The position numbers and the translations under genes are program-made. Positions 2,915 to 52,274 of a stretch of 64,000 bases of DNA are shown in pieces; the first letter of the stretch is position 1; each line of letters opens with the position of its first letter. The stretch covers positions 576 through 64,575 of the forward strand of contig JAGQJT010000004.1 in assembly GCA_020430505.1 (NCBI GenBank). The letters run 5' to 3'. The stretch comes from Nanobdellota archaeon. Its GTDB lineage: Archaea > Nanobdellota > Nanobdellia > Pacearchaeales > GW2011-AR1. The notes under the pieces are model-generated. The model was not told the DNA's origin and made no database searches. It worked only from the letters and a program-made list of their open reading frames with translations.

Positions 2915-3334
2915 GTGGCAAAATTATTTTCGATTAAGGAGAAATATTCGAAGAAAATTTTTTCTAAAGAGAAGTTAGTCGAATTTAGAAGACAAAATGT
3001 ACATATTTCAAGGAAAGAAATTTGTTTAATTTATACCAGTTTTCCTGTCAAAAAAATTGAAGGGCATTTTATTGTTGAAGAAAAGATTAGGCTCCCCATT
3101 CAAGAACTTTGGAATAAAACAAAAGAGATTGCTGGAATTTCTTTTAAAGAATTTATGAACTATTTTGAAGGGTGTGAAGTTGGGACAGCAATACTATTTA
3201 AATCAGTAAAAAAAATAAAAAAGACTTGGAGTTTAGAGGATTTAAAAAAAATTTTTGGTGATTCGTTTAGACCTCCTCAATCTTATTATAATCTTGAAGG
3301 CAAATTATCAAAATTGGTTGAAATCACTGCCTAG
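2915..3334 (+). CDS. ASCH (PUA-like) domain protein
   Basis: 139 aa. The N-terminus LFSIKEKYSKKIFSKEKLVEFRR resembles the ASCH signature (SIKQPWA..I..G.K..E.R). GTG start. Confidence 0.5.
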   Translation: MAKLFSIKEKYSKKIFSKEKLVEFRRQNVHISRKEICLIYTSFPVKKIEGHFIVEEKIRLPIQELWNKTKEIAGISFKEFMNYFEGCEVGTAILFKSVKKIKKTWSLEDLKKIFGDSFRPPQSYYNLEGKLSKLVEITA

Positions 3335-4844
3335 TATATTTTGGATTAATTCCTGAAAATCGTTTTATTTCAGAATACTCTTTATTTCCTATCTTTCTCA
3401 TTGTTAAAAAATTACCTTTAATTATATTTTCTTCGTGCAATTTTGAAAGATGCACTTCTTTTGGAAAATGAAAACAATGCCTAAAGAGAATTGTTAATGC
3501 TGGCTTATTTTTTAAAATCTCTTTTTCCTTGTAAACAGTACGATTACTAGTTAAATGCAATATTTTTTCCGGAGGTAAATCATTAAATGCTTCTTCAACA
3601 ATCCCCACAGAGGTGATTCCCATTGTATCTTGAGATCTATAGAAAAGCAATAAATCTCCTTTATTTATATTTTTGAAAGGAGCTCCGCACAAATAAGCTT
3701 TTTCTATAGTGTTTCCTTCCACAATAAACTCCCCCATATGTTCATTCAAAGTAGTTTGTCTTTTTTTAAAATCTGTAAAAAGTTTTCCATGATAATCTGG
3801 TTTTATTGGAACTATATATTTTGTGCACTTCTTTCCATCATAAAAAGAAGGAAAATAGAAGTGATTTATCATTTTTTGTGAAAACTCTCCAAATTTTGGG
3901 GGGACAATCTTCTTTATGAAAATAGATTCTGCCTTTCCATTTTCATGGATTATTTTGTTTGGGATTTTAAAGAATCCAAATTTAAGTAATAAATTTACGA
4001 GAGGGTCGTTTTTTTCTTCAAAATGTGTAACATAAATCTCATCTATGTTTTCCCCCATTGCCTTACTTATTGATAATTTTAAAAAAAGTTCCCCTATCTT
4101 CTTTCCATTATTTGAAACTTTTAAAGTTCTAATTTTTATTCTTGATCTTTTTGGTAATGGAGGTTTGCATAATTCAGATTCTTCTCCAGGATTTTCTTTT
4201 TTTAACATCAAAAATGCCTGAATTTCTCCCTTTCCATCTTCATGGATATAAGCCTTTTCTCCGTTTAAGCATCTTTTTTTGAACCATTTGTCGAATCCCG
4301 CATATTCTTCTTTTAAACTTTTAAAAAACTTCTGTGATAAATAACTAGAATTAAGACTTTTGAATTTTATTGCAGGAGGAGTTAAAATTTTTTTTTCTTC
4401 AGGATACAACTCCAATATTTTCTGGATAAATTCAGAAACTTTTAATACCTTCTCGGAAATTTTAAAGATTTCTGCTTTTTTATGAATCCCTCTATCTTCT
4501 GTTACAAGAAATTCTACACAGTCTGTATAAACTGCATATAAAAGTTCATTATCTACCCTATCATTGTCTTTTCCTCCTTCTTTCCATTTCACCTTTTTTG
4601 AAAAATCTATGGAGAGCTGAAATTTTGGAGAATTCTCTAATAAAGAATAACACTTAATCTTGGATAAAGTACTTTTTTTTCTTTTTTCATCACGATCTCT
4701 ATTTATGTCTGTTATAGATTCTGGATGTAAAAAAGGAAGAATTTTCTTTGAGGAAAGAATTTTTGAAAAGGTTTGAATATCTTCCTTAATTATTTTATCT
4801 CCTTCTCTGTAAATGAAAATATTGGTATCTATCAAAATACGCAT
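3324..4844 (-). CDS. three-domain fusion protein: N-terminal PIN nuclease, central GNAT-like acetyltransferase fold, C-terminal PUA-like (ASCH/EVE-like) module
   Basis: PIN: MRILIDTNIFIYRE plus LVTEDRGI. GNAT-like: IQAFLMLK...IKIRTLKVSNNGKKIGELFLKLSISKA...IYVTHFE...LLLKFGFFKI. The C-terminal ~170 aa are beta-rich (GDLLLFYRSQDTMGITSVGIVEE). Confidence 0.5.
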   Translation of the reverse strand: MRILIDTNIFIYREGDKIIKEDIQTFSKILSSKKILPFLHPESITDINRDRDEKRKKSTLSKIKCYSLLENSPKFQLSIDFSKKVKWKEGGKDNDRVDNELLYAVYTDCVEFLVTEDRGIHKKAEIFKISEKVLKVSEFIQKILELYPEEKKILTPPAIKFKSLNSSYLSQKFFKSLKEEYAGFDKWFKKRCLNGEKAYIHEDGKGEIQAFLMLKKENPGEESELCKPPLPKRSRIKIRTLKVSNNGKKIGELFLKLSISKAMGENIDEIYVTHFEEKNDPLVNLLLKFGFFKIPNKIIHENGKAESIFIKKIVPPKFGEFSQKMINHFYFPSFYDGKKCTKYIVPIKPDYHGKLFTDFKKRQTTLNEHMGEFIVEGNTIEKAYLCGAPFKNINKGDLLLFYRSQDTMGITSVGIVEEAFNDLPPEKILHLTSNRTVYKEKEILKNKPALTILFRHCFHFPKEVHLSKLHEENIIKGNFLTMRKIGNKEYSEIKRFSGINPKYTRQ

Positions 4845-4993: not shown

Positions 4994-5941
4994 ATGCCAA
5001 CAAGAAAAGCACCAAGAAAAGGAAGCCTGCAATATTGGCCTCGTAAAAGGGCCTCGAAATTCTTACCTAGAGTAAACTGGGATATAATTTCTGGTTCAAA
5101 TAATTCCTTGAAAGGATTCATCGGTTACAAGGCCGGGATGGTTTCTGGTTTCGTTAAAGATGAGACAGCAGATTCTATGACTAAAGGCAAAAAAATAATC
5201 ATTCCTATGACTGTTATTGAATGCCCTCCAATGAAGATTTTTTCTATTAGATTATACAAAAACGGCAAAGTTGCAAAAGACATTCTTGCTGAAAGTTTAG
5301 ACAAAGAACTAAAGAAAAAAGTCAAACTTCCAAAAGAAAAGAAAAAGTTACCTGAAATCAAGCTTGAAGATTACGACAAAATTTCTGTTATCGCTTACAG
5401 TGTTGTTAAAAAATCTGGTTTAAAGAAAAAACCAGACCTTGCAGAAATTGGATTGAATGGTTCAATTGAAGATCAATGGAATTTCGTTAAGGAAAATATA
5501 AACAAAGAAATTCTTGTTTCTGAAGTATTAAAAAAGGACGAATTGGTCGATGCAAGAGGTTTAACAAAAGGAAAAGGTTTCCAAGGTCCTGTAAAAAGAT
5601 TCGGAATTAAGCTTAGATTCCACAAGACAGAAAAAGGTCGAAGAAAAGTTGGTTCAATCGGTCCGTGGCATCCAGCAAGAGTTACTTTTAGAGTTCCTAT
5701 GGCTGGTCAACTTGGAATGTTCACAAGAGTTGTTTACAACAATAAAATAATCGACGTGAAAAAATCAACTGAAGAGCCAATCAAAAACTTAAAACAATAC
5801 GGAGATGTTAAAGCAGACTATGTTTTGGTGAGAGGTTCAGTGCAAGGGCCTGCAAAAAGACAATTACTTTTAACTCATGCTCTTAGAGAAACTAAAAAGC
5901 AAAAGAAAAAGAATTTCGAATTGTTGGAGGTTAGAAGATGA
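4994..5941 (+). CDS. rpl3: 50S ribosomal protein uL3
   Basis: MPTRKAPRKGSLQYWPRKRA..., GKGFQGPVKRFG, PWHPARV. First position in the canonical archaeal cluster. Confidence 0.95.
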   Translation: MPTRKAPRKGSLQYWPRKRASKFLPRVNWDIISGSNNSLKGFIGYKAGMVSGFVKDETADSMTKGKKIIIPMTVIECPPMKIFSIRLYKNGKVAKDILAESLDKELKKKVKLPKEKKKLPEIKLEDYDKISVIAYSVVKKSGLKKKPDLAEIGLNGSIEDQWNFVKENINKEILVSEVLKKDELVDARGLTKGKGFQGPVKRFGIKLRFHKTEKGRRKVGSIGPWHPARVTFRVPMAGQLGMFTRVVYNNKIIDVKKSTEEPIKNLKQYGDVKADYVLVRGSVQGPAKRQLLLTHALRETKKQKKKNFELLEVRR

Positions 5942-6252
5942 AAACAATAAAAGATTTAATAAGAATTGGTATTGGAGATGGATTGGAAACAGTGTCTTAT
6001 TCTCATTTTACAGTTGTGGGAAAAGATAATGGTCAAATTCAGATGGGGTTTGATGAGGGAACAAACTACTGGATTGGTAGTTTCAATCCAGAAGAAATTC
6101 TTTTTAATGAAGATGACAGAGTAATTGAAGCAAAACCGATTAAAGTATTATTTGGCGTGGAAATCACAGATAATAGATATAAAGAAATTAGGGAAAATCC
6201 GGTTCCATTCTATGATAAATATGTTAAGGAAAATATAAAAAATGAAAACTAA
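5938..6252 (+). CDS. orphan small ORF A (104 aa) inserted between rpl3 and rpl4
   Basis: ATGA overlap with the rpl3 stop (5938-5941). Acidic, no TM segment. Its stop lies inside a copy of the rpl4 start. Confidence 0.6.
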   Translation: MKTIKDLIRIGIGDGLETVSYSHFTVVGKDNGQIQMGFDEGTNYWIGSFNPEEILFNEDDRVIEAKPIKVLFGVEITDNRYKEIRENPVPFYDKYVKENIKNEN

Positions 6253-6316
6253 ACTTTACACTGCCGACGGAAAACAAAAGAAAAAGAATTTCGAATTGTT
6301 GGAGGTTAGAAGATGA
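6237..6316 (+). repeat. duplication scar: copy of the rpl4 5' end (6242..6276 = 6568..6602, 34/35 nt) fused to a copy of the rpl3 3' end (6275..6316 = 5900..5941, 42/42 nt)
   Basis: Direct comparison of the sequence. The fusion reads in frame as the 24-codon mini-ORF MKTKLYTADGKQKKKNFELLEVRR* (6242..6316). Its TGA overlaps the ATG of ORF B. Confidence 0.9.
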
Positions 6317-6564
6317 GAGAAAGAATTCTTTCTTTAAACACAATTGGGAATGCAGAACTCGCTGTAATGAGAGATAAACTATATAACACCTTCGAGAAAT
6401 TTTTTAAGAATTTTTCAGAATTTGTGAATGAAGAAGGATTAGAGAACACTCTTAAAAGAATAAAAAATACATATGAAAGAGTCTCTTCAGTAAATGAAGA
6501 AGCTGGAAAAAGAAACTTATTCTCAAGAAGTCAAAATTTAAATTACATAATTCAACAAAACTAA
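6313..6564 (+). CDS. orphan small ORF B (83 aa) inserted between rpl3 and rpl4
   Basis: ATGA overlap with the chimeric mini-ORF. Ends 3 nt before the rpl4 ATG. Predicted helical and charged. Confidence 0.55.
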   Translation: MRERILSLNTIGNAELAVMRDKLYNTFEKFFKNFSEFVNEEGLENTLKRIKNTYERVSSVNEEAGKRNLFSRSQNLNYIIQQN

Positions 6565-6567
6565 AAA

Positions 6568-7365
6568 ATGAAAACTAAACTATACACTGCCGACGGAAAA
6601 CAAGGAAAAGAAATGACCTTGCCTAGTTTTTTCTCAACGAGAGTTAGAGAAGATTTAATTCAAAAAATAATTGAAGCAAAGAAACAAATTCAACCTTATG
6701 CTCCTTCAGCTGTTGCAGGAAATCAATATTCAGCGTCAGGAAAATTAAACCACAAAAGACACGTTTGGAAATCTCAATATGGTCGAGGAATGTCAAGAAT
6801 TCCAAGAAAGAAAATGTCAAGAAGAGGAACTCAATTCAATTGGGTTGGTGCAACTGTTCCAAACACTAGAGGTGGAAGAAGAGCTCACCCTCCAAAGGCA
6901 ATTTCTATGATTAATACTAATAAAATAAACAAAAAAGAAATGAAACTTGCATTGCAATCTGCTCTTGCAGCAACAGTTCAAGAGAAATACTTAACAAAAA
7001 GATACGAAACTCTTGCTAACGAGAAAATAACAAACTTGCCTTTCATCGTTGAAGCGAAATTCTTAGGATTAAAAACTAAAGAAATGGTTAAAACTTTGAA
7101 AACAATGTTTGGCGAAGCTCTTTCAAAGGTTGCTTTCAAGAAAAAATCAATAAGAGCTGGAATCGGAAAATTGAGAGGAAGAAAATACAAGAAATCTTTA
7201 GGGGTTTTGATTGTTGTTGGAAATGAAGAAAAACTTAAAGTAAAGGAATTCGACGTCGTTAACGCAAACAAACTAAGCATAAACGATTTAGCAAACGGTG
7301 GAGCTGGAAGATTAACAATATATACTGAAAATGCAATTAAAGATTTGGAGGCAAAGTTCAAATGA
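6568..7365 (+). CDS. rpl4: 50S ribosomal protein uL4
   Basis: YGRGMSRIPRKKMSRRG...GGRRAHPPKA; position in the cluster. Confidence 0.95.
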   Translation: MKTKLYTADGKQGKEMTLPSFFSTRVREDLIQKIIEAKKQIQPYAPSAVAGNQYSASGKLNHKRHVWKSQYGRGMSRIPRKKMSRRGTQFNWVGATVPNTRGGRRAHPPKAISMINTNKINKKEMKLALQSALAATVQEKYLTKRYETLANEKITNLPFIVEAKFLGLKTKEMVKTLKTMFGEALSKVAFKKKSIRAGIGKLRGRKYKKSLGVLIVVGNEEKLKVKEFDVVNANKLSINDLANGGAGRLTIYTENAIKDLEAKFK

Positions 7366-7661
7366 AGGGATTAGAAGGAATTAAAGAAATAAAGACTGGA
7401 GAAGACCTACAAAATTTGGAAGTGGGACAAAAAGTTATGATAAATGGAATTTATGAAGAAGTTTACGTTGGGAAAACTAAATCAAATGATTCGAGATTTG
7501 AATTCCATACAACAATTTACATGAAAGAGGGTAAAATGACTGAAAGACAAATTAGATTAATGGGAAACGATGGAAATGTACATGATCAAAAAAAGAAAAA
7601 CATACAAGAAAACAACAGAAAATATAACACGTACCTAAAAATATTGGAGGAAAGCAAATGA
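7362..7661 (+). CDS. orphan small ORF C (99 aa) inserted between rpl4 and rpl23
   Basis: ATGA overlaps at both ends (7362-7365 and 7658-7661). The GGAGG-N-ATGA junction is duplicated (ttggaggcaaagttcaaatga vs ttggaggaaagcaaatga). Confidence 0.6.
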   Translation: MKGLEGIKEIKTGEDLQNLEVGQKVMINGIYEEVYVGKTKSNDSRFEFHTTIYMKEGKMTERQIRLMGNDGNVHDQKKKNIQENNRKYNTYLKILEESK

Positions 7662-7895: not shown

Positions 7896-8135
7896 ATGGG
7901 AAAAACAAAAATAATTGGATTAATTGATGAATACAGAAAAAGTGCAAGAGACATAGATAATAATTTTATGGATCCGGAGAGAAGAGAAGTTCATGAAAGA
8001 GAAGAGAAATTTTACAAACCAAGATTTGCTAAATTGGGCGTTAGCGCATCAATAATTTCAACAATATACGCTTCCAGAAACAACGAAGAAGGAATTGAGG
8101 AAATAAAAGAAAACATAGAGAAATACTTAAACTAA
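7896..8135 (+). CDS. orphan small ORF D (79 aa) inserted between rpl23 and rpl2
   Basis: Starts 1 nt after the rpl23 stop. Its first codons (atgggaaaaacaaaaataatt) are a near copy of the rpl2 start (atgggaaaaagaataatt). Confidence 0.55.
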   Translation: MGKTKIIGLIDEYRKSARDIDNNFMDPERREVHEREEKFYKPRFAKLGVSASIISTIYASRNNEEGIEEIKENIEKYLN

Positions 8136-8836: not shown

Positions 8837-9142
8837 ATGGAAAAAAATAAATTTTATGATGATGGAAAAAGAAATTTGCTTTATTTGGGAATCACAAAGG
8901 ACATCCTTGAAGAAAAAAACATTCATAAATTCATTTATTATTCTCAATCTTCAGGAGAAGAAACAATGAATAAAATAGAAGTACCCTTAGGAAATATTTT
9001 TGAGAAAGACACAAAAGTGATTATAAATTGGAATAATGTTTTCACATCAATTTCAAGACCAAATGATATTGGCGATAAATTTAAAGAATTAAAAGAAATT
9101 TATGAAAATGCCTTAGAAAGAGAATTGGAGTTAACAAAATGA
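8837..9142 (+). CDS. orphan small ORF E (101 aa) inserted between rpl2 and rps19
   Basis: Starts 1 nt after the rpl2 stop. ATGA overlap with rps19 (9139-9142). Confidence 0.55.
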   Translation: MEKNKFYDDGKRNLLYLGITKDILEEKNIHKFIYYSQSSGEETMNKIEVPLGNIFEKDTKVIINWNNVFTSISRPNDIGDKFKELKEIYENALERELELTK

Positions 9143-16099: not shown

Positions 16100-16972
16100 A
16101 TGACAGAAGACATAAAAAAAACAGCTGAAGCATATGAAACAGTTTCCGAGGAGAAAGTTTTAGACGAGGCTAAAGATGTTGAGAAGGTTACAAATAAAAT
16201 GATTGAAAAGAAAACTGAAGAAGAAACAAGGAAAAAAGAAAAGGAGAAGAAAGAAATAATCAAGAAAAAAGAAGAATCTGAAAAAGTTCCTGAAAGAAGA
16301 TTGACAAGAAAAGAAATGCAAGAAGCTGAAGAGAAGAGATTATTAGAATCTTGGGAACCTAAGACAAAGTTAGGAAAGGATGTTAAAAATGGAAAGATAA
16401 AAACTTTGGATGAAGTTATTGATAGTGGTCAGAAAATTCTTGAAGAACAAGTAGTAGATTACCTTGTTCCAATTCAATCAGATTTAATTTCTATAGGACA
16501 AGCTAAAGGAAAATTCGGAGGAGGAAAAAGAAGAGCTTGGAGACAAACTCAAAGAAAAACTGAAGAAGGAAATGTTTTAACTTTCTCTAGCATGGCTGTT
16601 GTAGGAGATGAAAAAGGACATGTTGGAATTGGAGTTGGAAAAGCAACAGAAACTCTTCCTGCGAGAGATAAAGCAGTAAGAAAAGCGAAATTAAGCTTAA
16701 TTAAAGTTCAAAGAACTTGTGCAGGATTTGATTGCTCTTGTTCCGAAAAGCACACAATCCCTTTTGAAGTTACTGGAAAATCTGGAAGCGTTAGAGTAAC
16801 TTTGATTCCTGCTCCTCAAGGAACAGGATTAGTAGTTGCAAATGAACTAAAGAAAATTCTTAAATTAGCAGGAATAAAAGATGTTTATAGCAAGACTTTT
16901 GGTAAACAAAGAACAACATTCAATTTGGCTAAGGCATGCATTGAAGCGTTGAACAAAACAAATAGAAAATGA
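16100..16972 (+). CDS. rps5: 30S ribosomal protein uS5 with a ~90 aa Lys/Glu-rich N-terminal extension
   Basis: Core: FSSMAVVGDEKGHVGIGVGKATE...IPAPQGTGLV. The N-terminus is EKKTEEETRKKEKEKKEIIKKKEESEK. Confidence 0.9.
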   Translation: MTEDIKKTAEAYETVSEEKVLDEAKDVEKVTNKMIEKKTEEETRKKEKEKKEIIKKKEESEKVPERRLTRKEMQEAEEKRLLESWEPKTKLGKDVKNGKIKTLDEVIDSGQKILEEQVVDYLVPIQSDLISIGQAKGKFGGGKRRAWRQTQRKTEEGNVLTFSSMAVVGDEKGHVGIGVGKATETLPARDKAVRKAKLSLIKVQRTCAGFDCSCSEKHTIPFEVTGKSGSVRVTLIPAPQGTGLVVANELKKILKLAGIKDVYSKTFGKQRTTFNLAKACIEALNKTNRK

Positions 16973-17891: not shown

Positions 17892-18128
17892 ATGAGTGAA
17901 CTAACTACAAATCAACTGATCAAAATAATCGTAGGTTTCTTTGTGGTTGCTGTAGTAATCCTAGGAGTATACTTAATTTTTCAAAACAAAATCTTAACAT
18001 TTTTTCAAGTAGAAGAGCATATTGAAAATAATGATTCTTCTCAAGATAATTCTATTCAAATAAATCAAACCCCAAATTCCTCACAAAAACCTCAAATAAA
18101 TTTAGTTCCAATTGACGTAAAGACATGA
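17892..18128 (+). CDS. small single-pass membrane protein
   Basis: 78 aa; TM helix IKIIVGFFVVAVVILGVYLIF; ATGA-coupled to the next gene. Confidence 0.5.
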   Translation: MSELTTNQLIKIIVGFFVVAVVILGVYLIFQNKILTFFQVEEHIENNDSSQDNSIQINQTPNSSQKPQINLVPIDVKT

Positions 18129-19417
18129 AAAAAATAATTTTTGTTTTCATTTTCCTTATAATTTTTTCCAATATTGTAAGTGCAGGAGATATTTTTAGGA
18201 GTTTCCAAATTGACCCAGGTTCTCCTTTTCAGAATGTGGAAAATTTAAGTGGAATTAGAGAGATTCAATATGAATTATTTGAAAAGGAAAACGTTAATAT
18301 AAATGTTTATTTCCCTTCTGAAAAAAAGGCAAAAGAAAATGGTTATGATGGGGAAAGGCTTGCTAGAGACGCTTTTTCTAGAGCAGATTTAAACCATATT
18401 GCAACACCCTCTTTGAATTTAATAATTGTGGTTTGGGAAGATGAGTCTGGAAATGCCCACATAGATGTAGGATATGCAAAAGATTGTGGTTGGACTGAAA
18501 AAGGTTTATTTTTATTGACATCTCATCTCCTAGATAGAGAAGACCTAACCTCCTTTGAATTTTGGGAGACTATTCTTAAAAAAGTTTCAACTTCCTTAGA
18601 AACTTATAATCTGGATTATCTTAAAAGTTATTGCGAATTTGCAGAGGAACTAAAAGATAAATATGGGTGCAAGTCTTTTTTTCCAGAGTTAGAAGAAAAA
18701 AGAGATTTCTCTTCTAAACCTTACAAAATTGTTTTCATATTTGATGATTACAAACAGGAAGATTTTGAACTTGTTAGAAATAATTTTAAGGAAGTTCTTC
18801 TAGGCTTGAAAAAAAATGATTATTGGAATAAGAATTTTGATAAATTTCAATTTGAATATTTAGATGAACTTTTGTTTAACAATTATTCGGGAGTCGGGAG
18901 TCCTTCTTCAAATGTAGGCATTTCCTATTTAGAATCATATTGCTTGGCAGATAATGTTGCTTTCATAGCAAATTCCAGATTTAGATCATTTGCATTGCCC
19001 CCTACTCAAGGGGCAACAGGAAGCGCATATTTTTCTTTTCCTTTTGTAGAAAAAGACTATTGGATAGGGGATTACTCCTATTTTCTAGAGGATGAAACCT
19101 TACTAGTTCATGAATTTGGGCATTCAGTTTTTTGCCTGAGAGATGAATATACCGAAGAAGGGAGAGGAAATTTCTCTAGGCCCCCAAATTGCGCTAGCAA
19201 TCTCGAAGAAGCATTTGATTTTTGGGGAACTTTAATAGGAAGAGGAGAAGATAATTTATTTATCAAGATTTGGCCAGGATGTTCATATATAGAGGAAAAT
19301 ATTCGTCCAACATATAATTCTGTTATGAGAGAACATTTTAATGAAATAAATTATGGGATTGTGAATGAAAGATGGGCAGATTCCATTTTGAAAGGAGAAG
19401 TAGAATGCATATCCTAG
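18125..19417 (+). CDS. secreted zinc metallopeptidase, M64-like (HEFGHS...DEY)
   Basis: Signal peptide MKKIIFVFIFLIIFSNIVSA. The motif LLVHEFGHSVFCLRDEY matches the HExxHxxxGxxDEY pattern of peptidase family M64. Confidence 0.6.
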   Translation: MKKIIFVFIFLIIFSNIVSAGDIFRSFQIDPGSPFQNVENLSGIREIQYELFEKENVNINVYFPSEKKAKENGYDGERLARDAFSRADLNHIATPSLNLIIVVWEDESGNAHIDVGYAKDCGWTEKGLFLLTSHLLDREDLTSFEFWETILKKVSTSLETYNLDYLKSYCEFAEELKDKYGCKSFFPELEEKRDFSSKPYKIVFIFDDYKQEDFELVRNNFKEVLLGLKKNDYWNKNFDKFQFEYLDELLFNNYSGVGSPSSNVGISYLESYCLADNVAFIANSRFRSFALPPTQGATGSAYFSFPFVEKDYWIGDYSYFLEDETLLVHEFGHSVFCLRDEYTEEGRGNFSRPPNCASNLEEAFDFWGTLIGRGEDNLFIKIWPGCSYIEENIRPTYNSVMREHFNEINYGIVNERWADSILKGEVECIS

Positions 19418-20028
19418 GGATAAATTTTTATAAAAAAGCACTTTGCTTAATCTTTTTCATAATTTTAATTAACTTAGTTTCTGCAAATTACTTGCAACAA
19501 TCGTACCATATTCAAATAGATTATTATGAAGGAAACGTAAGTATTCAAAAAATAGAACTAGTAGAAGGATTTTCAGATAAAGTATCTTCAAATGAGGGAG
19601 AGAGTTATTCTTTAAAAATAATTTCATTTGATGGGGAAGTTTACCGAGATTATCCTTTTAATTTTCCAAGAGAAGTTTTCGTTACTCCTGGACCAGAATG
19701 TTTTGTTGAAGAAGGCATTGTAGATACAGATCTATGTGGAGGGCCCACACATTACCTTTCAAACTTTTCATCAGTTCTACTAAAGATTCCTTTTTCTCCT
19801 GGCGCAAAATCTTTAGAGCTGGTGGATCCATCTGGGAGATTGATCTTAAAAGAAGACCTTTCAAAATTCTCATGTGGAGATTTGATATGCGAAGAACATG
19901 AAACCTATTCTAGTTGTAGGAAAGATTGTTCCTTAAAGGACAACGAATATTTTGAAATTGGAATTGCTCTGGGAATAATAATTTTATTGGGGACCGGGAT
20001 TGGGATTTATCTAAAGAAAAAGAAGTGA
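19405..20028 (+). CDS. secreted protein with a C-terminal membrane anchor (start moved to MHILG...)
   Basis: Signal-like LCLIFFIILINLVSA. Cys-rich C-terminal part, then IGIALGIIILLGTGIGIYLKKKK. Confidence 0.5.
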   Translation: MHILGINFYKKALCLIFFIILINLVSANYLQQSYHIQIDYYEGNVSIQKIELVEGFSDKVSSNEGESYSLKIISFDGEVYRDYPFNFPREVFVTPGPECFVEEGIVDTDLCGGPTHYLSNFSSVLLKIPFSPGAKSLELVDPSGRLILKEDLSKFSCGDLICEEHETYSSCRKDCSLKDNEYFEIGIALGIIILLGTGIGIYLKKKK

Positions 20029-48988: not shown

Positions 48989-49243
48989 ATGGCTGAGAAA
49001 AAAAGTATTAGAACTAAAGGCAAGATATCTTTTAGTAGATATTTTCAAAAATTGAATGAAGGAGACTCTGTTGCAGTGATTAGAGAGATTTCACTAAGGC
49101 CCAGATTCCCAAAGAGACTACAAGGAAAAACTGGCAAAGTTATTGGACAAAGAGGCTCTTCTTATGAGGTTCTAATAAAAGATCAAAATAAAGAAAAAAA
49201 ATTCATATTAAACCCAATACATTTGAAAAAAATACTAAATTAA
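48989..49243 (+). CDS. rpl21e: 50S ribosomal protein eL21
   Basis: GDSVAVIREISLRPRFPKRLQGKTGKVIGQRGSSYEVLIKDQNKEKKFILNPIHLKKI aligns by eye with archaeal L21e. Confidence 0.8.
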   Translation: MAEKKSIRTKGKISFSRYFQKLNEGDSVAVIREISLRPRFPKRLQGKTGKVIGQRGSSYEVLIKDQNKEKKFILNPIHLKKILN

Positions 49244-49244
49244 A

Positions 49245-49535
49245 ATGATAGAACACAAACAAGCTTTAAGCATCGCAGAATCAAAAGAATTCATTGAGGA
49301 TAAAGAGATCAGTAAATTTGCAAAAGGATTTGTTAGTATGAAACCAGAAAAGGCAAAAGAATTAAGAAAAGAACTTGAGGATCTAAACTTAATAAAACTC
49401 AATCCAAAGCACATTTCAAAGATAATTGATTTCCTTCCAGAGGATAGAGAAGATTTAAATAAGATTCTCCCAGATACTAATCTTGATGAGAATGAAGCGA
49501 ACGATGTTTTATCAAAAATTAAACAATTCAAATAA
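49245..49535 (+). CDS. rpoF: RNA polymerase subunit F (Rpo4)-like
   Basis: Size, and the conserved archaeal order L21e-RpoF-DUF655. Confidence 0.55.
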   Translation: MIEHKQALSIAESKEFIEDKEISKFAKGFVSMKPEKAKELRKELEDLNLIKLNPKHISKIIDFLPEDREDLNKILPDTNLDENEANDVLSKIKQFK

Positions 49536-50074
49536 TGAAAATGAAAGAAGAAACAGCAATAATAATAGAATATTTACCGAATGGATATCCTCTAGAAAGG
49601 AAAATGCTCCCTGTAGCACAAGCCATCGGAGACACTAATTTAACTCTTCTAGAATTGGTTCCTAGGAGAGGAGAAACACTTGAGATTGGAGAAAAGGTTT
49701 ACATCGGAGAAGGTAAGAGAGATAAAATTTCTTACATCCTTGGAAGACTCAAAAGAGAAAAATTAACTGAAACTGCAAAAAATCAATTGCAAGAAGTGAT
49801 CCAAGAACTTATAAAGAAATCTGAAGAAAGATTCGTAAACTTTTTTAATAAGGCAAACGCCATAAACAAGAGAGTTCACCAAATTGAGCTTTTACCAGGA
49901 ATTGGTAAGAAGCACATGCAAGAAATACTCAAGCAAAGGGAAGAAAAAGAATTCGAATCTTTTGAAGAGATGAAGAAGAGAATTCAGAATTTGCCCGACC
50001 CTGAAAAAGCAGTAGAGAAAAGAATTTTTCAGGAGTTAACAAACCTAGAAAGGTATAATTTATTCATAGGATAA
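49535..50074 (+). CDS. DUF655 family protein (helix-hairpin-helix)
   Basis: IIEYLPNGYP...; LLPGIGKKHMQEILKQRE. Confidence 0.7.
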   Translation: MKMKEETAIIIEYLPNGYPLERKMLPVAQAIGDTNLTLLELVPRRGETLEIGEKVYIGEGKRDKISYILGRLKREKLTETAKNQLQEVIQELIKKSEERFVNFFNKANAINKRVHQIELLPGIGKKHMQEILKQREEKEFESFEEMKKRIQNLPDPEKAVEKRIFQELTNLERYNLFIG

Positions 50075-50556
50075 TGGAAAAAACAGAACAAGAAAAAACA
50101 GATAACAAGAAGTATGATGATAGAGTAGTTAGAATTCTATCTAAAGACATAGAAGGTAAAATGAAGATTTACCCTGGATTGACAAAGGTAAAAGGAATAT
50201 CCTGGTCTTTCTCCAACTCAATTTGTATTGCATTAAAATTAGACAAGAATAGAAAAATTGGTTCTTTAACTGAAAGTGAAGTTAAAAAAATAGAAGATTT
50301 TGCAAAAAACCCTTCTACTTCAAAACATCTATTGAATAGAAGAAAAGACTTTACTTCTGGAGAAGACAAACATTTAATTGGAAGTGACCTTGAATTAACT
50401 CATGAATTTGATATTAAAAGATTAAAAAAAATAAAAACTTATAGAGGACTTAGACATACTGCAAACTTGCCTTCCAGAGGACAAAGAACTAAATCCAATT
50501 TCAGAAAGAACAGAAGAAAAGGTTCTGGGATAAAGAAAAAAACTGTAAAGAAATAA
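50074..50556 (+). CDS. rps13: 30S ribosomal protein uS13
   Basis: IKTYRGLRHTANLPSRGQRTKSN. Confidence 0.9.
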   Translation: MEKTEQEKTDNKKYDDRVVRILSKDIEGKMKIYPGLTKVKGISWSFSNSICIALKLDKNRKIGSLTESEVKKIEDFAKNPSTSKHLLNRRKDFTSGEDKHLIGSDLELTHEFDIKRLKKIKTYRGLRHTANLPSRGQRTKSNFRKNRRKGSGIKKKTVKK

Positions 50557-50557
50557 A

Positions 50558-51058
50558 ATGAAAAGAAAACATAAACAATACTCTCGACCAAAAAGACCTT
50601 TTGATAAAGTTAGAATTGATGAAGAAGCCCAGATAAAAAAAGAATTTGGTCTGAAAAATAAAAAAGAAATTTGGAAGGCTGAAGCAAGAATAAAATCAAT
50701 GAGAGAAAAGGCAAAAAAATTAATCTCTTCTTCTGCAGAGGAACAAAAAGCACTTTTTGACAGATTACAAAAAATTGGATTAAATGTGAACAGCATTGGA
50801 GAAGTTTTGTCGTTGGATAAAAAAGATTATCTAAACAGAAGATTGCAGACAATTCTTGTAAAAAAAGAATTGGCCACAACACCAAAATCTGCAAGACAAT
50901 TAATTGTACATCAAAAGGTATTGGTTGATGGAAAAATCCTTGATAGCCCTTCTTATATTGTTCCTGTAGAGATGGAGAACAAGATAACTCTAAAACCGAG
51001 CAAACTTAAAAAAACTAAAGAAAACCCAATAAAAGAAGGAGAAAGCGAAAATGCCTAA
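50558..51058 (+). CDS. rps4: 30S ribosomal protein uS4
   Basis: KQYSRPKRPFDKVRIDEE...; S4 domain near the C-terminus. Confidence 0.9.
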   Translation: MKRKHKQYSRPKRPFDKVRIDEEAQIKKEFGLKNKKEIWKAEARIKSMREKAKKLISSSAEEQKALFDRLQKIGLNVNSIGEVLSLDKKDYLNRRLQTILVKKELATTPKSARQLIVHQKVLVDGKILDSPSYIVPVEMENKITLKPSKLKKTKENPIKEGESENA

Positions 51059-51524
51059 GAAGAAAATTGAAGAACCCAAAGAAGAACAAGAAGTAGAAGA
51101 GGAAACTCAAGAAAAAGGAAATAATGAAGAAGGAAAGATTTCTCATGTTAAGGAAGCTGAAGCAATTTTGAATATTTATACATCGTTTAATAATACAATA
51201 GCACATGTCACAGATATGTCTGGAAGAACTCTTACTAAAGTTACAGGAGGAATGGTTACCAAACACAATCGTTTGAAAGCAAACCCCACTGTCGCAATGT
51301 TCATTGCTAAAAGAATTTCTGAATCTGTTAAAGACATGGGAGTTAAATCATTTTACATAAGAATAAGAACAAAAACAAGAAATCCTGCGCCAGGCCCTGG
51401 AGCAAGTGCAATTGTTAAGAGTTTGACAAGAGAAGGATTTAAAATTTTGAACATTCTTGATTCATCAAGAATTCCTAGAGGAGGTCCAAAGAAAAAGGGA
51501 GGACGTAGAGGAAGAAGGCCTTAG
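51051..51524 (+). CDS. rps11: 30S ribosomal protein uS11 with a ~35 aa acidic N-terminal extension
   Basis: NIYTSFNNTIAHVTDMSG...PGPGASAIVKSL. Confidence 0.9.
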   Translation: MPKKKIEEPKEEQEVEEETQEKGNNEEGKISHVKEAEAILNIYTSFNNTIAHVTDMSGRTLTKVTGGMVTKHNRLKANPTVAMFIAKRISESVKDMGVKSFYIRIRTKTRNPAPGPGASAIVKSLTREGFKILNILDSSRIPRGGPKKKGGRRGRRP

Positions 51525-51531
51525 GGCAAGG

Positions 51532-51539
51532 TTTATATA
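51532..51539 (+). promoter_or_regulatory. TATA-like box (tttatata), 21 nt before the rpoD ATG
   Basis: Spacing rule. Confidence 0.4.
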
Positions 51540-51560
51540 ACCTATTAAAAAGATAATAAA

Positions 51561-52274
51561 ATGCAATCAATAAATAAAACAGATAACAAATTAACCTTTT
51601 CAGCAAAAATTAGTGAAAGTTTAGCTAACGCTTTGAGAAGAAGCGTTAATTCAATTCCAACTTTGGCAATAGATGAAGTTGAAATCTCAAAGAATGATTC
51701 TCCTCTTTATGATGAGACTGTTGCACACAGAATGGGACTAATTCCTTTGAAGATGCAAAAGTCGTTTAAAGAAAAAGATGAAGCTGTTCTAAAATTGAAA
51801 ACAAATAAACCTGGAACAGTTTATTCCAAAGATTTTAAAGGCGATATCGAGGTAGTCTATGGAGAGATCCCAATTACCGTTTTAGGAGATGACACTGAGA
51901 TTAATGTCAAAGCAATCGTAAGACTCGGAAAAGGAAGTGAACATGCTAAGTTTTCTCCAGGGTTGATTTATTACAGAAATGCTTCTGAAATCACAATGGA
52001 TAAAGAATTTTTTAATAAAGTGAGGGAAACTTTTCCTGAGAATGAAGTCAAGGAAAAAGGAGATAAGATAATCATTGAGGATAATCTAGAAAAACCAATG
52101 GTTGATTTTTGCGAGGGATTAGCATTAAGAAATAAGAAAAAAGTTGAAGTCAAAGACACAGATGAGTTGATCATTAGTGTAGAAGGCTTTGGGCAAATGA
52201 AAGCTAAAGATATGTTTAAAGAATCATTAAAAATATTAAAGAAAGACCTAAATGATTTTGCAAAAAAAATATAA
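51561..52274 (+). CDS. rpoD: DNA-directed RNA polymerase subunit D (Rpo3)
   Basis: LANALRRSVNSIPTLAIDEVEISKNDSPLYDETVAHRMGLIPL. Confidence 0.85.
   Translation: MQSINKTDNKLTFSAKISESLANALRRSVNSIPTLAIDEVEISKNDSPLYDETVAHRMGLIPLKMQKSFKEKDEAVLKLKTNKPGTVYSKDFKGDIEVVYGEIPITVLGDDTEINVKAIVRLGKGSEHAKFSPGLIYYRNASEITMDKEFFNKVRETFPENEVKEKGDKIIIEDNLEKPMVDFCEGLALRNKKKVEVKDTDELIISVEGFGQMKAKDMFKESLKILKKDLNDFAKKI

Follow-up and report, generated by a model that had tools for sequence, protein, structure and literature searches.

No gene array in prokaryotes is more conserved than the L3-to-L15 ribosomal protein cluster, which is treated as invariant in binning and phylogeny. Unidentified ORFs are known from the ribosomal operons of Methanococcus vannielii and were later recognised as conserved proteins. 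Template switching of the MMBIR/FoSTeS type leaves short nearby-templated patches, overlaps of 3–4 nt and a final head-to-tail joint; most documented cases come from eukaryotes and bacteria, and, to our knowledge, it is undemonstrated in DPANN archaea. Integron cassette arrays consist of promoterless small ORFs in one orientation with a strong promoter ahead, vary in content among relatives, and are expressed from Pc and cassette-borne start signals. Coupled gene pairs with ATGA stop/start overlaps normally encode subunits of one complex (PMC6728339, PMC10666635), and translational coupling requires overlaps or very short gaps (PMC10666635). Arrays attributed to homology-facilitated illegitimate recombination (HFIR; PMC3240628), such as the T6SS effector-immunity arrays of Vibrio cholerae and orphan Rhs/CDI modules (PMC5361080), stack modules beside a conserved gene, move older material downstream and keep duplicated ends of the conserved gene as scars. 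They arise through one illegitimate joint, usually with 3–10 bp of microhomology (PMC3240628), and involve no dedicated recombinase.

The locus described here resembles each of these systems in part. Its host is a Pacearchaeota-like DPANN archaeon, and the sequence is a metagenome-derived stretch of 64 kb (hereafter the window), in which all features discussed lie on the plus strand. The operon opens with rpl3 (4994–5941), an archaeal/eukaryotic-type L3 gene (Pfam Ribosomal_L3, E 6e-62), and rpl4 (6568–7365; Pfam Ribosomal_L4) comes after three intervening ORFs. ORF A (5938–6252) encodes a lineage-specific small protein of 104 aa and has its ATG within the rpl3 ATGA, a 24-codon mini-ORF follows (6242–6316), and ORF B (6313–6564) encodes an 83 aa orphan protein for which no family or homologue was found. 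Three more orphans sit further along: ORF C (7362–7661, 99 aa) at the rpl4/rpl23 junction with an ATGA overlap on each side, ORF D (7896–8135, 79 aa) at rpl23/rpl2, and ORF E (8837–9142, 101 aa) at rpl2/rps19. None of the first five junctions, from L3 to S19, is empty in this genome. Out to 5 kb, the locus is surrounded by genes for ribosomal proteins together with a PDC-M11A/B pair. The public record carries locus tags for ORF A (01655), C, D, and E and leaves the mini-ORF untagged and unannotated, a practical caution that gene callers miss such mini-ORFs.

Two duplications mark the rpl3/rpl4 junction. The last 42 nt of rpl3 (5900–5941) recur at 6275–6316 with 42/42 identity, and the window holds no third copy, with 0 expected from 100 shuffles. 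The resident repeat bears a GGAGG Shine-Dalgarno-like motif and the ATGA stop/start overlap, and the copy gives ORF B its own GGAGG and ATGA restart. The first 35 nt of rpl4 (6568–6602) recur at 6242–6276 with one mismatch (T at 6256, A at 6582). Both repeats had been noted in a preliminary description of this DNA and were recovered as given there, although the second is longer than was reported: 6236–6277 matches 6562–6603 at 41/42 positions, the extension being TAAAAA (6 nt) ahead of the ATG and one extra base at the 3' side. The resident version comprises the ORF B stop TAA, AAA and the first 36 nt of rpl4, and the copy likewise joins the end of ORF B to the start of rpl4 (TAAAAA, ATG and 33 nt). 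The head-to-tail fusion reported earlier also stands. The two copies abut with a 3-nt overlap, CAA (6275–6277), common to both, and this breakpoint microhomology would reach 7 nt (AAAACAA) if G5899 were A, as it is in relatives. The resulting order, L3-end ... L4-start / L3-end ... L4-start, contains a tandem joint at which downstream sequence is newly fused to upstream sequence. Repeat spacings are 375 and 326 nt, and each unit is flanked by direct 42-nt repeats.

Between the conserved body of ORF A and the L4-start copy lies a 17-nt patch (6223–6239) that matches an internal segment of rpl3 (5486–5502) exactly, with 23/25 identity over 25 nt. The 17-nt match is longer than any obtained from 500 dinucleotide shuffles (maximum 15), and for this A-rich patch the shuffle test is the sole source of significance. 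The patch overlaps the L4-start copy by 4 nt, TAAA (6236–6239), and the body of ORF A is followed by a chain of templated segments: 17 nt from within L3, 42 nt from the L4 start and 42 nt from the L3 end. The preliminary description had taken the gene ends for homology arms. The novel L4-start/L3-end joint, with its 3 nt of exact overlap and the rpl3-internal patch preceding it, contradicts that claim, since a 3-nt joint overlap together with a patch overlapping by 4 nt is an illegitimate, microhomology-type signature and not one of double homologous recombination. Both overlaps fall within the range reported for HFIR joints; CAA, at 3 nt, is at its lower limit.

We consider it probable that the locus is a recent illegitimate-recombination scar that stacks the unrelated, lineage-specific genes A and B in a former 4-nt rpl3/rpl4 ATGA overlap. 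Among the six nearest lineages, five have an empty, ATGA-overlapping rpl3/rpl4 junction (79, 76, 72, 71, and 70% L4 identity), and the sixth (75% L4 identity) has a 19-codon mini-ORF there that is bounded by an ATGA on either side. ORFs A, B, C, D, and E are absent from all of these closest relatives (70–79% L4 identity) and form singleton clusters; in this they differ from the extra ORFs of the Methanococcus vannielii type, which are likewise non-canonical ORFs within the L3-to-L15 cluster but are conserved across archaea. The insertion is fresh enough for its breakpoints to be read base by base. It may have arisen when replication switched templates in an ancestor that carried B, with the body of ORF A copied from other DNA, and the nearby-templated patches, the overlaps of 3–4 nt and the final head-to-tail joint are those of MMBIR/FoSTeS-type events. 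Alternatively, a one-sided homology-facilitated illegitimate crossover could have joined an A-bearing to a B-bearing allele. Our searches found no donor allele for a one-sided homologous anchor. Exact look-ups of A, B, C, L3, and L4 returned A+B contigs or short contigs and no A-only or B-only allele, so we infer the parent alleles rather than observe them.

The scar shares with HFIR arrays the stacking beside a conserved gene, the downstream displacement of older material, the duplicated gene ends and the single joint at a few nucleotides of microhomology with no dedicated recombinase. It differs in that the platform is an archaeal ribosomal protein operon, the modules are single orphan ORFs without a toxin or immunity signature, the outcome is a duplication rather than an insertion-deletion, and the scar has been kept as a translated-looking relay ORF.

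One route suggested in the preliminary description was a tandem duplication of an [L3-end, X, L4-start] unit followed by replacement of X. In this scheme one X would be exchanged for a different gene of a related strain by homologous recombination, which we judge unlikely, if with some claim to consideration. The head-to-tail layout of the repeats suits it, the 6 nt of ORF B end in the L4-start copy would follow from duplication of a B-type unit, and the lone T/A mismatch could mark donor DNA. The arms for the replacement step would be rpl3 and the short L4-start copy. The two units are not copies of each other, however: the repeats are confined to the unit ends, and the bodies of ORF A and ORF B are unrelated (BLASTP E 2.5). 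This route also requires at least two events, more than the alternatives, and confines the right-hand crossover to at most 42 nt, or to 21 nt should the mismatch come from donor DNA. Nor does it account for the 17 nt from within rpl3 that form the patch at the end of ORF A, and no known strain carries A at this position without B.

A Campbell-type integration is also conceivable, in which a circle of [L3-end, B, L4-start] (326 nt) or of [A, L4-start, L3-end] (375 nt) entered by a single homologous crossover within a 42-nt repeat. Formally the arrangement is a co-integrate, with direct 42-nt repeats around each unit, but the circle must already hold the L4-start/L3-end joint, which only moves the problem back, and 42 nt of homology is very short. 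With no evidence of circles either, we find this quite improbable. An array of this kind could resolve back by the same crossover.

Beyond this genome, the L3/L4 scar is the freshest case of a clade-wide intercalation of orphan ORFs between ribosomal protein genes, for which our literature search found no describing paper in DPANN archaea. Inserts of at least 150 nt occupied 38/246 scored junctions in the clade compared with 2/101 in more distant archaea (Fisher p 1.4e-4), and orphan ORFs filled ~15% of the scored junctions in the clade. Most clade inserts consisted of one orphan ORF in direct contact with the genes on either side, and 27/36 were bridged on both sides within −11 to +5 nt. The synteny of the ribosomal block is therefore not a safe guide in this clade. 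Other members have unrelated ORFs at L3/L4, so the proposed hotspot held insofar as this junction repeatedly gains ORFs, but the phenomenon is operon-wide, as each scored junction from L3 to S3 is occupied in some members. The proposed exchange of cassettes is not demonstrated, because, with the exception of a conserved exonuclease gene at L4>L23, each cassette is confined to a single genome and a single junction. A candidate shared family of ORF C and inserts from L055, L057, L010, and L024 was dropped (20–28% identity, unconvincing alignment, best BLASTP E 0.002). Traces of junction duplication elsewhere include a 28/29-nt L3-end copy at the end of the L3>L4 insert of L053 and a 16-nt junction repeat in L037, while the two-ORF inserts of L021 and L044, and likewise L092, yielded no further scars.

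The high and clade-specific occupancy, with five consecutive junctions filled here and four in L051, might point to a site-specific capture system, integron-like or homing-like, that targets the stop/start overlaps of the ribosomal operon, and in L048 two junctions each hold a ~100-nt repeat element, of which a further junction has a partial copy. Like integron cassettes, the inserts are small promoterless ORFs in one orientation, placed after a strong promoter and differing in content among relatives. Against a capture system, the inserts have no conserved cassette ends and genomes do not share cassettes. The boundaries of A and B are stop/start overlaps without spacer or inverted repeats, where integrons would have attC sites, and no integrase domain was found in the surrounding 5 kb. 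Folding of the scar does not exceed that of its shuffles (z −0.84), and the scar has no Rfam match, giving no sign of a structured RNA or attC-like hairpin. Searches for IS elements or MITEs found neither terminal inverted repeats flanking A or B nor transposase domains, the scar repeats being 42 nt of host gene ends. ORFs A to E had no Pfam, PHROG, or NCBIfam match and no HNH, GIY-YIG, LAGLIDADG, or similar nuclease domain, and no recombinase, endonuclease, or transposase domain occurs within or beside the inserts. A dedicated capture system is accordingly highly improbable.

We likewise see very little chance that duplication of the bare L3/L4 junction came first, giving birth to the mini-ORF, with A and B inserted independently afterwards. 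A 73-nt junction duplication would yield exactly this mini-ORF, and L092 shows that lone mini-ORFs are possible at L3/L4. Three events would be required, though, and no bare mini-ORF with the same breakpoints occurs among close strains. Moreover, the 6 nt before the ATG in the L4-start repeat, TAAAAA, are not rpl3 sequence, so the L4-start copy was taken from a junction with an insert already present.

A search for the scar beyond the window recovered the same joint in two more assemblies, each from its own BioSample: L096 (SAMN08389185; 21-kb scaffold), 100% identical to the window over 4193 nt, and L005 (SAMN08389186; 2.4-kb scaffold), with 11 differences and 0 in the scar. Concatenation of strain variants L3-A-L4 and L3-B-L4 by an assembler is scarcely credible even for metagenomic sequence whose public contigs with these genes in other data sets are short, because exact identity between the parents at the joint is limited to 3 nt, which leaves a k-mer assembler no path to join them, and an identical joint in three assemblies from two samples, one with SNPs elsewhere, excludes an artefact.

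Returning to the scar, we asked what it would mean for translation. The fused copies form, as earlier described, an in-frame ORF of 24 codons (6242–6316) encoding MKTKLYTADGKQKKKNFELLEVRR, L4 residues 1–12 followed by the last 12 residues of L3, and a local search matched its product to the L4 N-termini and L3 C-termini of relatives. An in-frame fusion would occur by chance one time in three. The stop of ORF A (TAA, 6250–6252) lies inside the L4-start copy, and the TGA of the mini-ORF overlaps the ATG of ORF B (ATGA, 6313–6316), leaving the stop/start hand-over unbroken. From rpl3 to rps3 the genes are co-directional, with overlaps or gaps of a few nucleotides; the spacings are, in order, −4, −11, −4, +3, −4, −4, +1, +1, +1, −4, +2, and +1 nt. 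These values of −11, −4, or +1 to +3 nt, insert junctions included, are like those of coupled ATGA pairs, although in this operon the ribosomal protein genes are separated by orphan ORFs and a 24-codon scar. With all distances kept at −11 to +3 nt, hand-over by termination-reinitiation is possible, and ribosomes could be passed from rpl3 to A, the 24-codon chimera, B, and rpl4, which would account for the persistence of the recombined arrangement. We propose, from the arrangement of the reading frames, that the mini-ORF acts as a relay ORF between A and B. Expression of the inserts would then rest on stop/start hand-over rather than on the Pc promoter and cassette-borne start signals of an integron, which like attC, an integrase, and conserved boundaries are missing here. 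The duplicated L3 end would have turned the GGAGG and ATGA signal that formerly served rpl4 over to B. The ATG of rpl4 lies 3 nt downstream of the ORF B stop with no Shine-Dalgarno-like motif upstream, and rpl4, lacking its own GGAGG, probably depends on translation of ORF B.

Tentatively, and with more doubt than belief, we suggest that the 5' half of Pacearchaeota-like ribosomal operons could be a recombinase-free capture-and-express platform. New or foreign ORFs would enter stop/start overlaps through microhomology-mediated template switching and be expressed at once at ribosomal-protein levels, with scars like the 24-codon chimera serving as functional relay adaptors. Having lost its own start signal, the ribosomal gene behind an insert would need translation of that insert, which would thereby be locked in (relay-ORF addiction). 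The locus offers a testable model of how a small gene can join an operon that is both essential and tightly coupled while leaving it intact, how a scar is co-opted as a relay ORF, and how an insert could become indispensable for expression of the next gene. It is also a natural system for studying termination-reinitiation and the birth or capture of orphan genes in DPANN archaea.

Both inserted ORFs have an in-frame, host-like codon signal. ORF A has no Pfam, PHROG, PADLOC, or NCBIfam family and one true homologue, P0123 (49% identity, E 2e-23, residues 9–97 aligned), which is encoded on a contig (JGI 3300075153) of non-ribosomal context dense in small ORFs; viral contigs and phage records held no homologue. 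Its AlphaFold model had a pLDDT of 56 and no meaningful PDB match. Repeats in giant Calx-beta proteins matched ORF A residues ~8–60 at 22–31% identity per repeat, a weak lead because the total score is inflated by repetition, and we made no family assignment from it. ORF B had no match to Pfam, PHROG, PADLOC, or NCBIfam, and no homologue in a word-indexed search of 5.8 billion proteins, in IMG/VR viral contigs, in phage records, or, with jackhmmer, in ~100 related loci. Its AF2 model (pLDDT 81.7) is a predicted two-helix hairpin of two long helices with no PDB match. PADLOC and Pfam matched none of ORFs A to E to a known defence or TA family.

Some minor resemblances occur at the other filled junctions. 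The 3' end of ORF C is similar to the 3' end of rpl4, and TAA-N-ATGGGAAAAA is common to ORF D and the start of rpl2. Taken over all inserts, the sign of junction duplication was weak (starts in register, P 0.016; gapped ends, P 0.039), although a few inserts stood out clearly.

The insert between rpl3 (4994-5941, +) and rpl4 (6568-7365, +) contained two ORFs, A (5938-6252, 104 aa) and B (6313-6564, 83 aa), separated by fused copies of the ends of both ribosomal protein genes. The final 42 nt of rpl3 (5900-5941) recurred exactly at 6275-6316, and the start of rpl4 recurred upstream with the single mismatch already described. This second repeat was slightly longer than first noted (6236-6277 vs 6562-6603, 41/42 identical), taking in six bases (TAAAAA) 5' of the ATG, and the two copies shared three bases, CAA (6275-6277). 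With ≤3 mismatches allowed, there were no further copies of either 42-mer in the 64-kb window and none in shuffled sequence. The preliminary description of the sequence was accurate in every statement: the fused copies formed an in-frame 24-codon mini-ORF (6242-6316) encoding MKTKLYTADGKQKKKNFELLEVRR, the ORF A stop (6250-6252) lay inside the L4-start copy, and the mini-ORF stop and ORF B ATG overlapped as ATGA. In a local search, the N-termini of L4 and the C-termini of L3 from relatives both matched the mini-ORF, confirming it as a chimera. Since an in-frame fusion has a one-in-three prior chance, the frame by itself is no evidence of selection.

The scar is a real feature. The same arrangement was present in two further public assemblies, a 21-kb scaffold (L096, BioSample SAMN08389185) with 100% identity to the window across the 4193 nt compared, and a 2.4-kb scaffold (L005, SAMN08389186) with 11 differing positions, 0 of them in the scar. 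The parental sequences had only three exact bases in common at the joint, so an assembler could not have built the junction from two strain variants. These two lines of evidence ruled out an assembly artefact.

The joint consisted of a chain of templated patches 3' of the conserved body of A. The first (6223-6239) was an exact 17-nt copy of rpl3-internal 5486-5502 (23/25 over 25 nt) and exceeded in length the best match obtained in any of 500 dinucleotide shuffles of A compared with rpl3 and rpl4. The second, the 42-nt copy of the B stop and rpl4 start (6236-6277), overlapped the first by TAAA, and the third, the 42-nt copy of the rpl3 end (6275-6316), overlapped the second by CAA; with A in place of G at 5899, as relatives have, this last overlap would become AAAACAA. 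Judged from sequence, the short patches and 3-4 nt overlaps indicate a putative microhomology-mediated illegitimate joining. Homologous-recombination stacking of cassettes had been suggested previously, and while the stacking and preserved hand-over are supported, the joint itself is of the illegitimate, microhomology type. Two versions of such an event both agree with the data. In one, replicative template switching in a B-bearing ancestor would have passed from the A body, taken from other DNA, to 17 nt of rpl3, then to the B end and rpl4 start, and back to the rpl3 end. In the other, a one-sided crossover by homology-facilitated illegitimate recombination (HFIR), or an unequal exchange, would have joined an A-bearing and a B-bearing allele, and the T/A mismatch at 6256 would be a donor polymorphism. 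HFIR illegitimate joints usually have 3-10 bp of microhomology (PMC3240628), and HFIR has also been put forward for stacked effector-immunity and Rhs modules (PMC5361080).

Duplication followed by replacement, the route first suggested, and Campbell-type integration of a small circle are both possible, but they need more events or presuppose an illegitimate joint. Initial duplication of a bare junction is argued against by the six B-end bases in the L4-start copy, which imply that the template junction was already occupied, and double homologous recombination cannot yield a junction of L4 start to L3 end. The integron, insertion-sequence and homing-endonuclease classes all fail, as no structured RNA, attC-like element, inverted repeat, recombinase, transposase or homing nuclease was associated with the inserts. 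Whatever the origin of the array, its 42-nt direct repeats could let a single crossover reduce it to A alone or B alone.

Stop/start spacings from rpl3 to rps3 were all -11, -4 or +1 to +3 nt, insert-made junctions included, supporting the earlier view that ribosome hand-over is probably preserved across the scar. Experiments in Haloferax and E. coli showed that termination-reinitiation coupling requires an overlap or very short gap and is nearly abolished by a spacer of about 20 nt (PMC10666635). The duplicated rpl3 end contained GGAGG seven bases 5' of the ATGA; this signal, once that of rpl4, would now serve B, and the resident copy would serve A. The sequence before rpl4 (...AACAAAACTAAAAAATG) had no GGAGG-type motif, and rpl4 is probably reliant on ribosomes that have just finished B. 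The A stop is provided by the 24-codon chimera, which would also bring ribosomes to the B restart site, and we infer that hand-over is the reason the product is tolerated.

The flanking genes were L3, L4, L23, L2 and S19 by Pfam, and the usual archaeal gene order continued in the window as far as L15. With A, B and ORFs C (7362-7661, L4>L23), D (7896-8135, L23>L2) and E (8837-9142, L2>S19), the operon's first five junctions were all filled. Later junctions through L15 were all tight (largest gap 35 nt), and a second ribosomal cluster (48989-52274) was without comparable inserts. The public record ("Nanoarchaeota archaeon", locus tags KC516_) annotates A, C, D and E as hypothetical proteins and leaves the mini-ORF without annotation. 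All five ORFs showed host-like codon-position bias in the annotated frame but in neither of the other two, at about the strength seen in ribosomal protein genes. Searches of Pfam, PHROGs, PADLOC and NCBIfam gave no family match for any of them. A had one convincing homologue in a search of 1.84 billion representative proteins: P0123 (103 aa, 49% identity, E 2e-23, spanning A residues 9-97), on a 3.9-kb metagenomic contig that lacked ribosomal genes and carried a run of small ORFs, of which just a zinc-ribbon ORF had a Pfam match. A thus belongs to a genuine protein family, found elsewhere in surroundings that are non-ribosomal and may be mobile. The termini of A outside this homology were the portions made of junction sequence. 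A also gave repeated but weak matches to Calx-beta repeats, from which we draw no conclusion; its predicted structure was poor (pLDDT 56). B had no detectable homologues in protein, viral-contig, phage-record and related-locus searches and was unrelated to A; its predicted structure, a two-helix hairpin (pLDDT 81.7), had no PDB match.

Relatives at 79, 76, 72, 71 and 70% L4 identity had compact operons with none of A-E, in which rpl3 and rpl4 abut or overlap by ATGA, and removal of 5942-6567 made the window colinear with their junction. The nearest species-representative genomes were Pacearchaeota and Nanoarchaeota MAGs at about 60% L4 identity. A 75% relative (L092) contained a 19-codon mini-ORF (MKANQRFLVIKKKQGGYFE) between rpl3 and rpl4 (3662-3721 of that locus), with an ATGA overlap on each end and its own internal GGAGG, that may be a remnant or precursor of an insert; unrelated ORFs were also found at its L4>L23 and S17>L14 junctions.

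We surveyed the junctions from L3 to S3 in ~100 loci reduced to a non-redundant set. Inserts ≥150 nt occupied 38/246 scored junctions within the clade (≥45% L4 identity) vs 2/101 in more distant archaea (Fisher p 1.4e-4), counts that are approximate because variable N-terminal extensions of L22 may account for some S19>L22 "inserts" and inflate apparent gaps. One operon-strand ORF took up ≥85% of the insert in 29/36 examined cases, and 27/36 lay -11 to +5 nt from the gene on either side. The proposed hotspot thus holds as recurrent, lineage-specific occupancy, but it is operon-wide and L3/L4 is not special. No cassette exchange between genomes, as had been envisaged, was seen: the inserted ORFs were mutually unrelated, save an RNase T/DEDD-type exonuclease gene (210-228 aa) kept between rpl4 and rpl23 in five loci (L001 6798-7451, L019 2079-2735, L021 1669-2355, L028 2598-3230, L044 1040-1684). 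This gene was ATGA-coupled in most of the five and may be a lineage-specific ribosome-related gene; in L021 and L044 the gap also held a further ORF upstream of it. Cys-rich inserted ORFs with CxxC pairs in relatives, such as a 51-aa ORF in L053 and 77- and 83-aa ORFs in L051 (L051/L002), suggest candidate small zinc-binding proteins.

Other scars were found. The 51-codon L3>L4 insert of L053 ended in a 28/29-nt rpl3-end copy (KNYELEELR plus ATGA), a 16-nt junction repeat lay on both sides of a 154-nt L22>S3 insert in L037, and the 3' end of ORF C was similar to that of rpl4. The junction-duplication signal over all inserts was weak (P 0.016-0.039), as expected if scars decay. One metagenomic relative (L048) carried a ~100-nt repeat at L3>L4 and L23>L2 (1311-1393 and 2530-2612; 94% identity over 83 nt), with a partial third copy near 2204-2259. 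It contained two hairpins, a possible 29-30-codon ORF, and the GAGG and ATG for the next gene, and looks like a small element spreading from junction to junction.

Inserts of this kind affect the operon's entire 5' part in a DPANN clade, and the literature searched held no description of orphan ORFs between ribosomal protein genes in DPANN. It is best filed as a variant that combines processes already known, namely duplication mediated by microhomology or stacking of the HFIR type with termination-reinitiation coupling, here at work where they were not expected.

Directly upstream of rpl3, two genes at 2915-3334 (+) and 3324-4844 (-) matched PDC-M11B (E 1e-30) and PDC-M11A (E 1e-141), respectively, a candidate defence pair in PADLOC; they occupied a variable island bounded by a conserved 234-aa gene and rpl3. 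In relatives this island held a 551-aa gene, HD/MazE-like genes with small ORFs, or nothing. Downstream, rpl15 and secY, neighbours as a rule in archaeal operons, were split by three ORFs without Pfam matches (17892-20028). Their products are 78, 430 and 218 aa long; the first is a probable membrane protein, and the second has a signal-peptide-like N-terminus and an HEFGH motif. S5 (16100-16972) had a Lys/Glu-rich N-terminal extension of about 90 residues, and L22 (9546-10169) a similar K/E/P-rich extension of about 75 residues.
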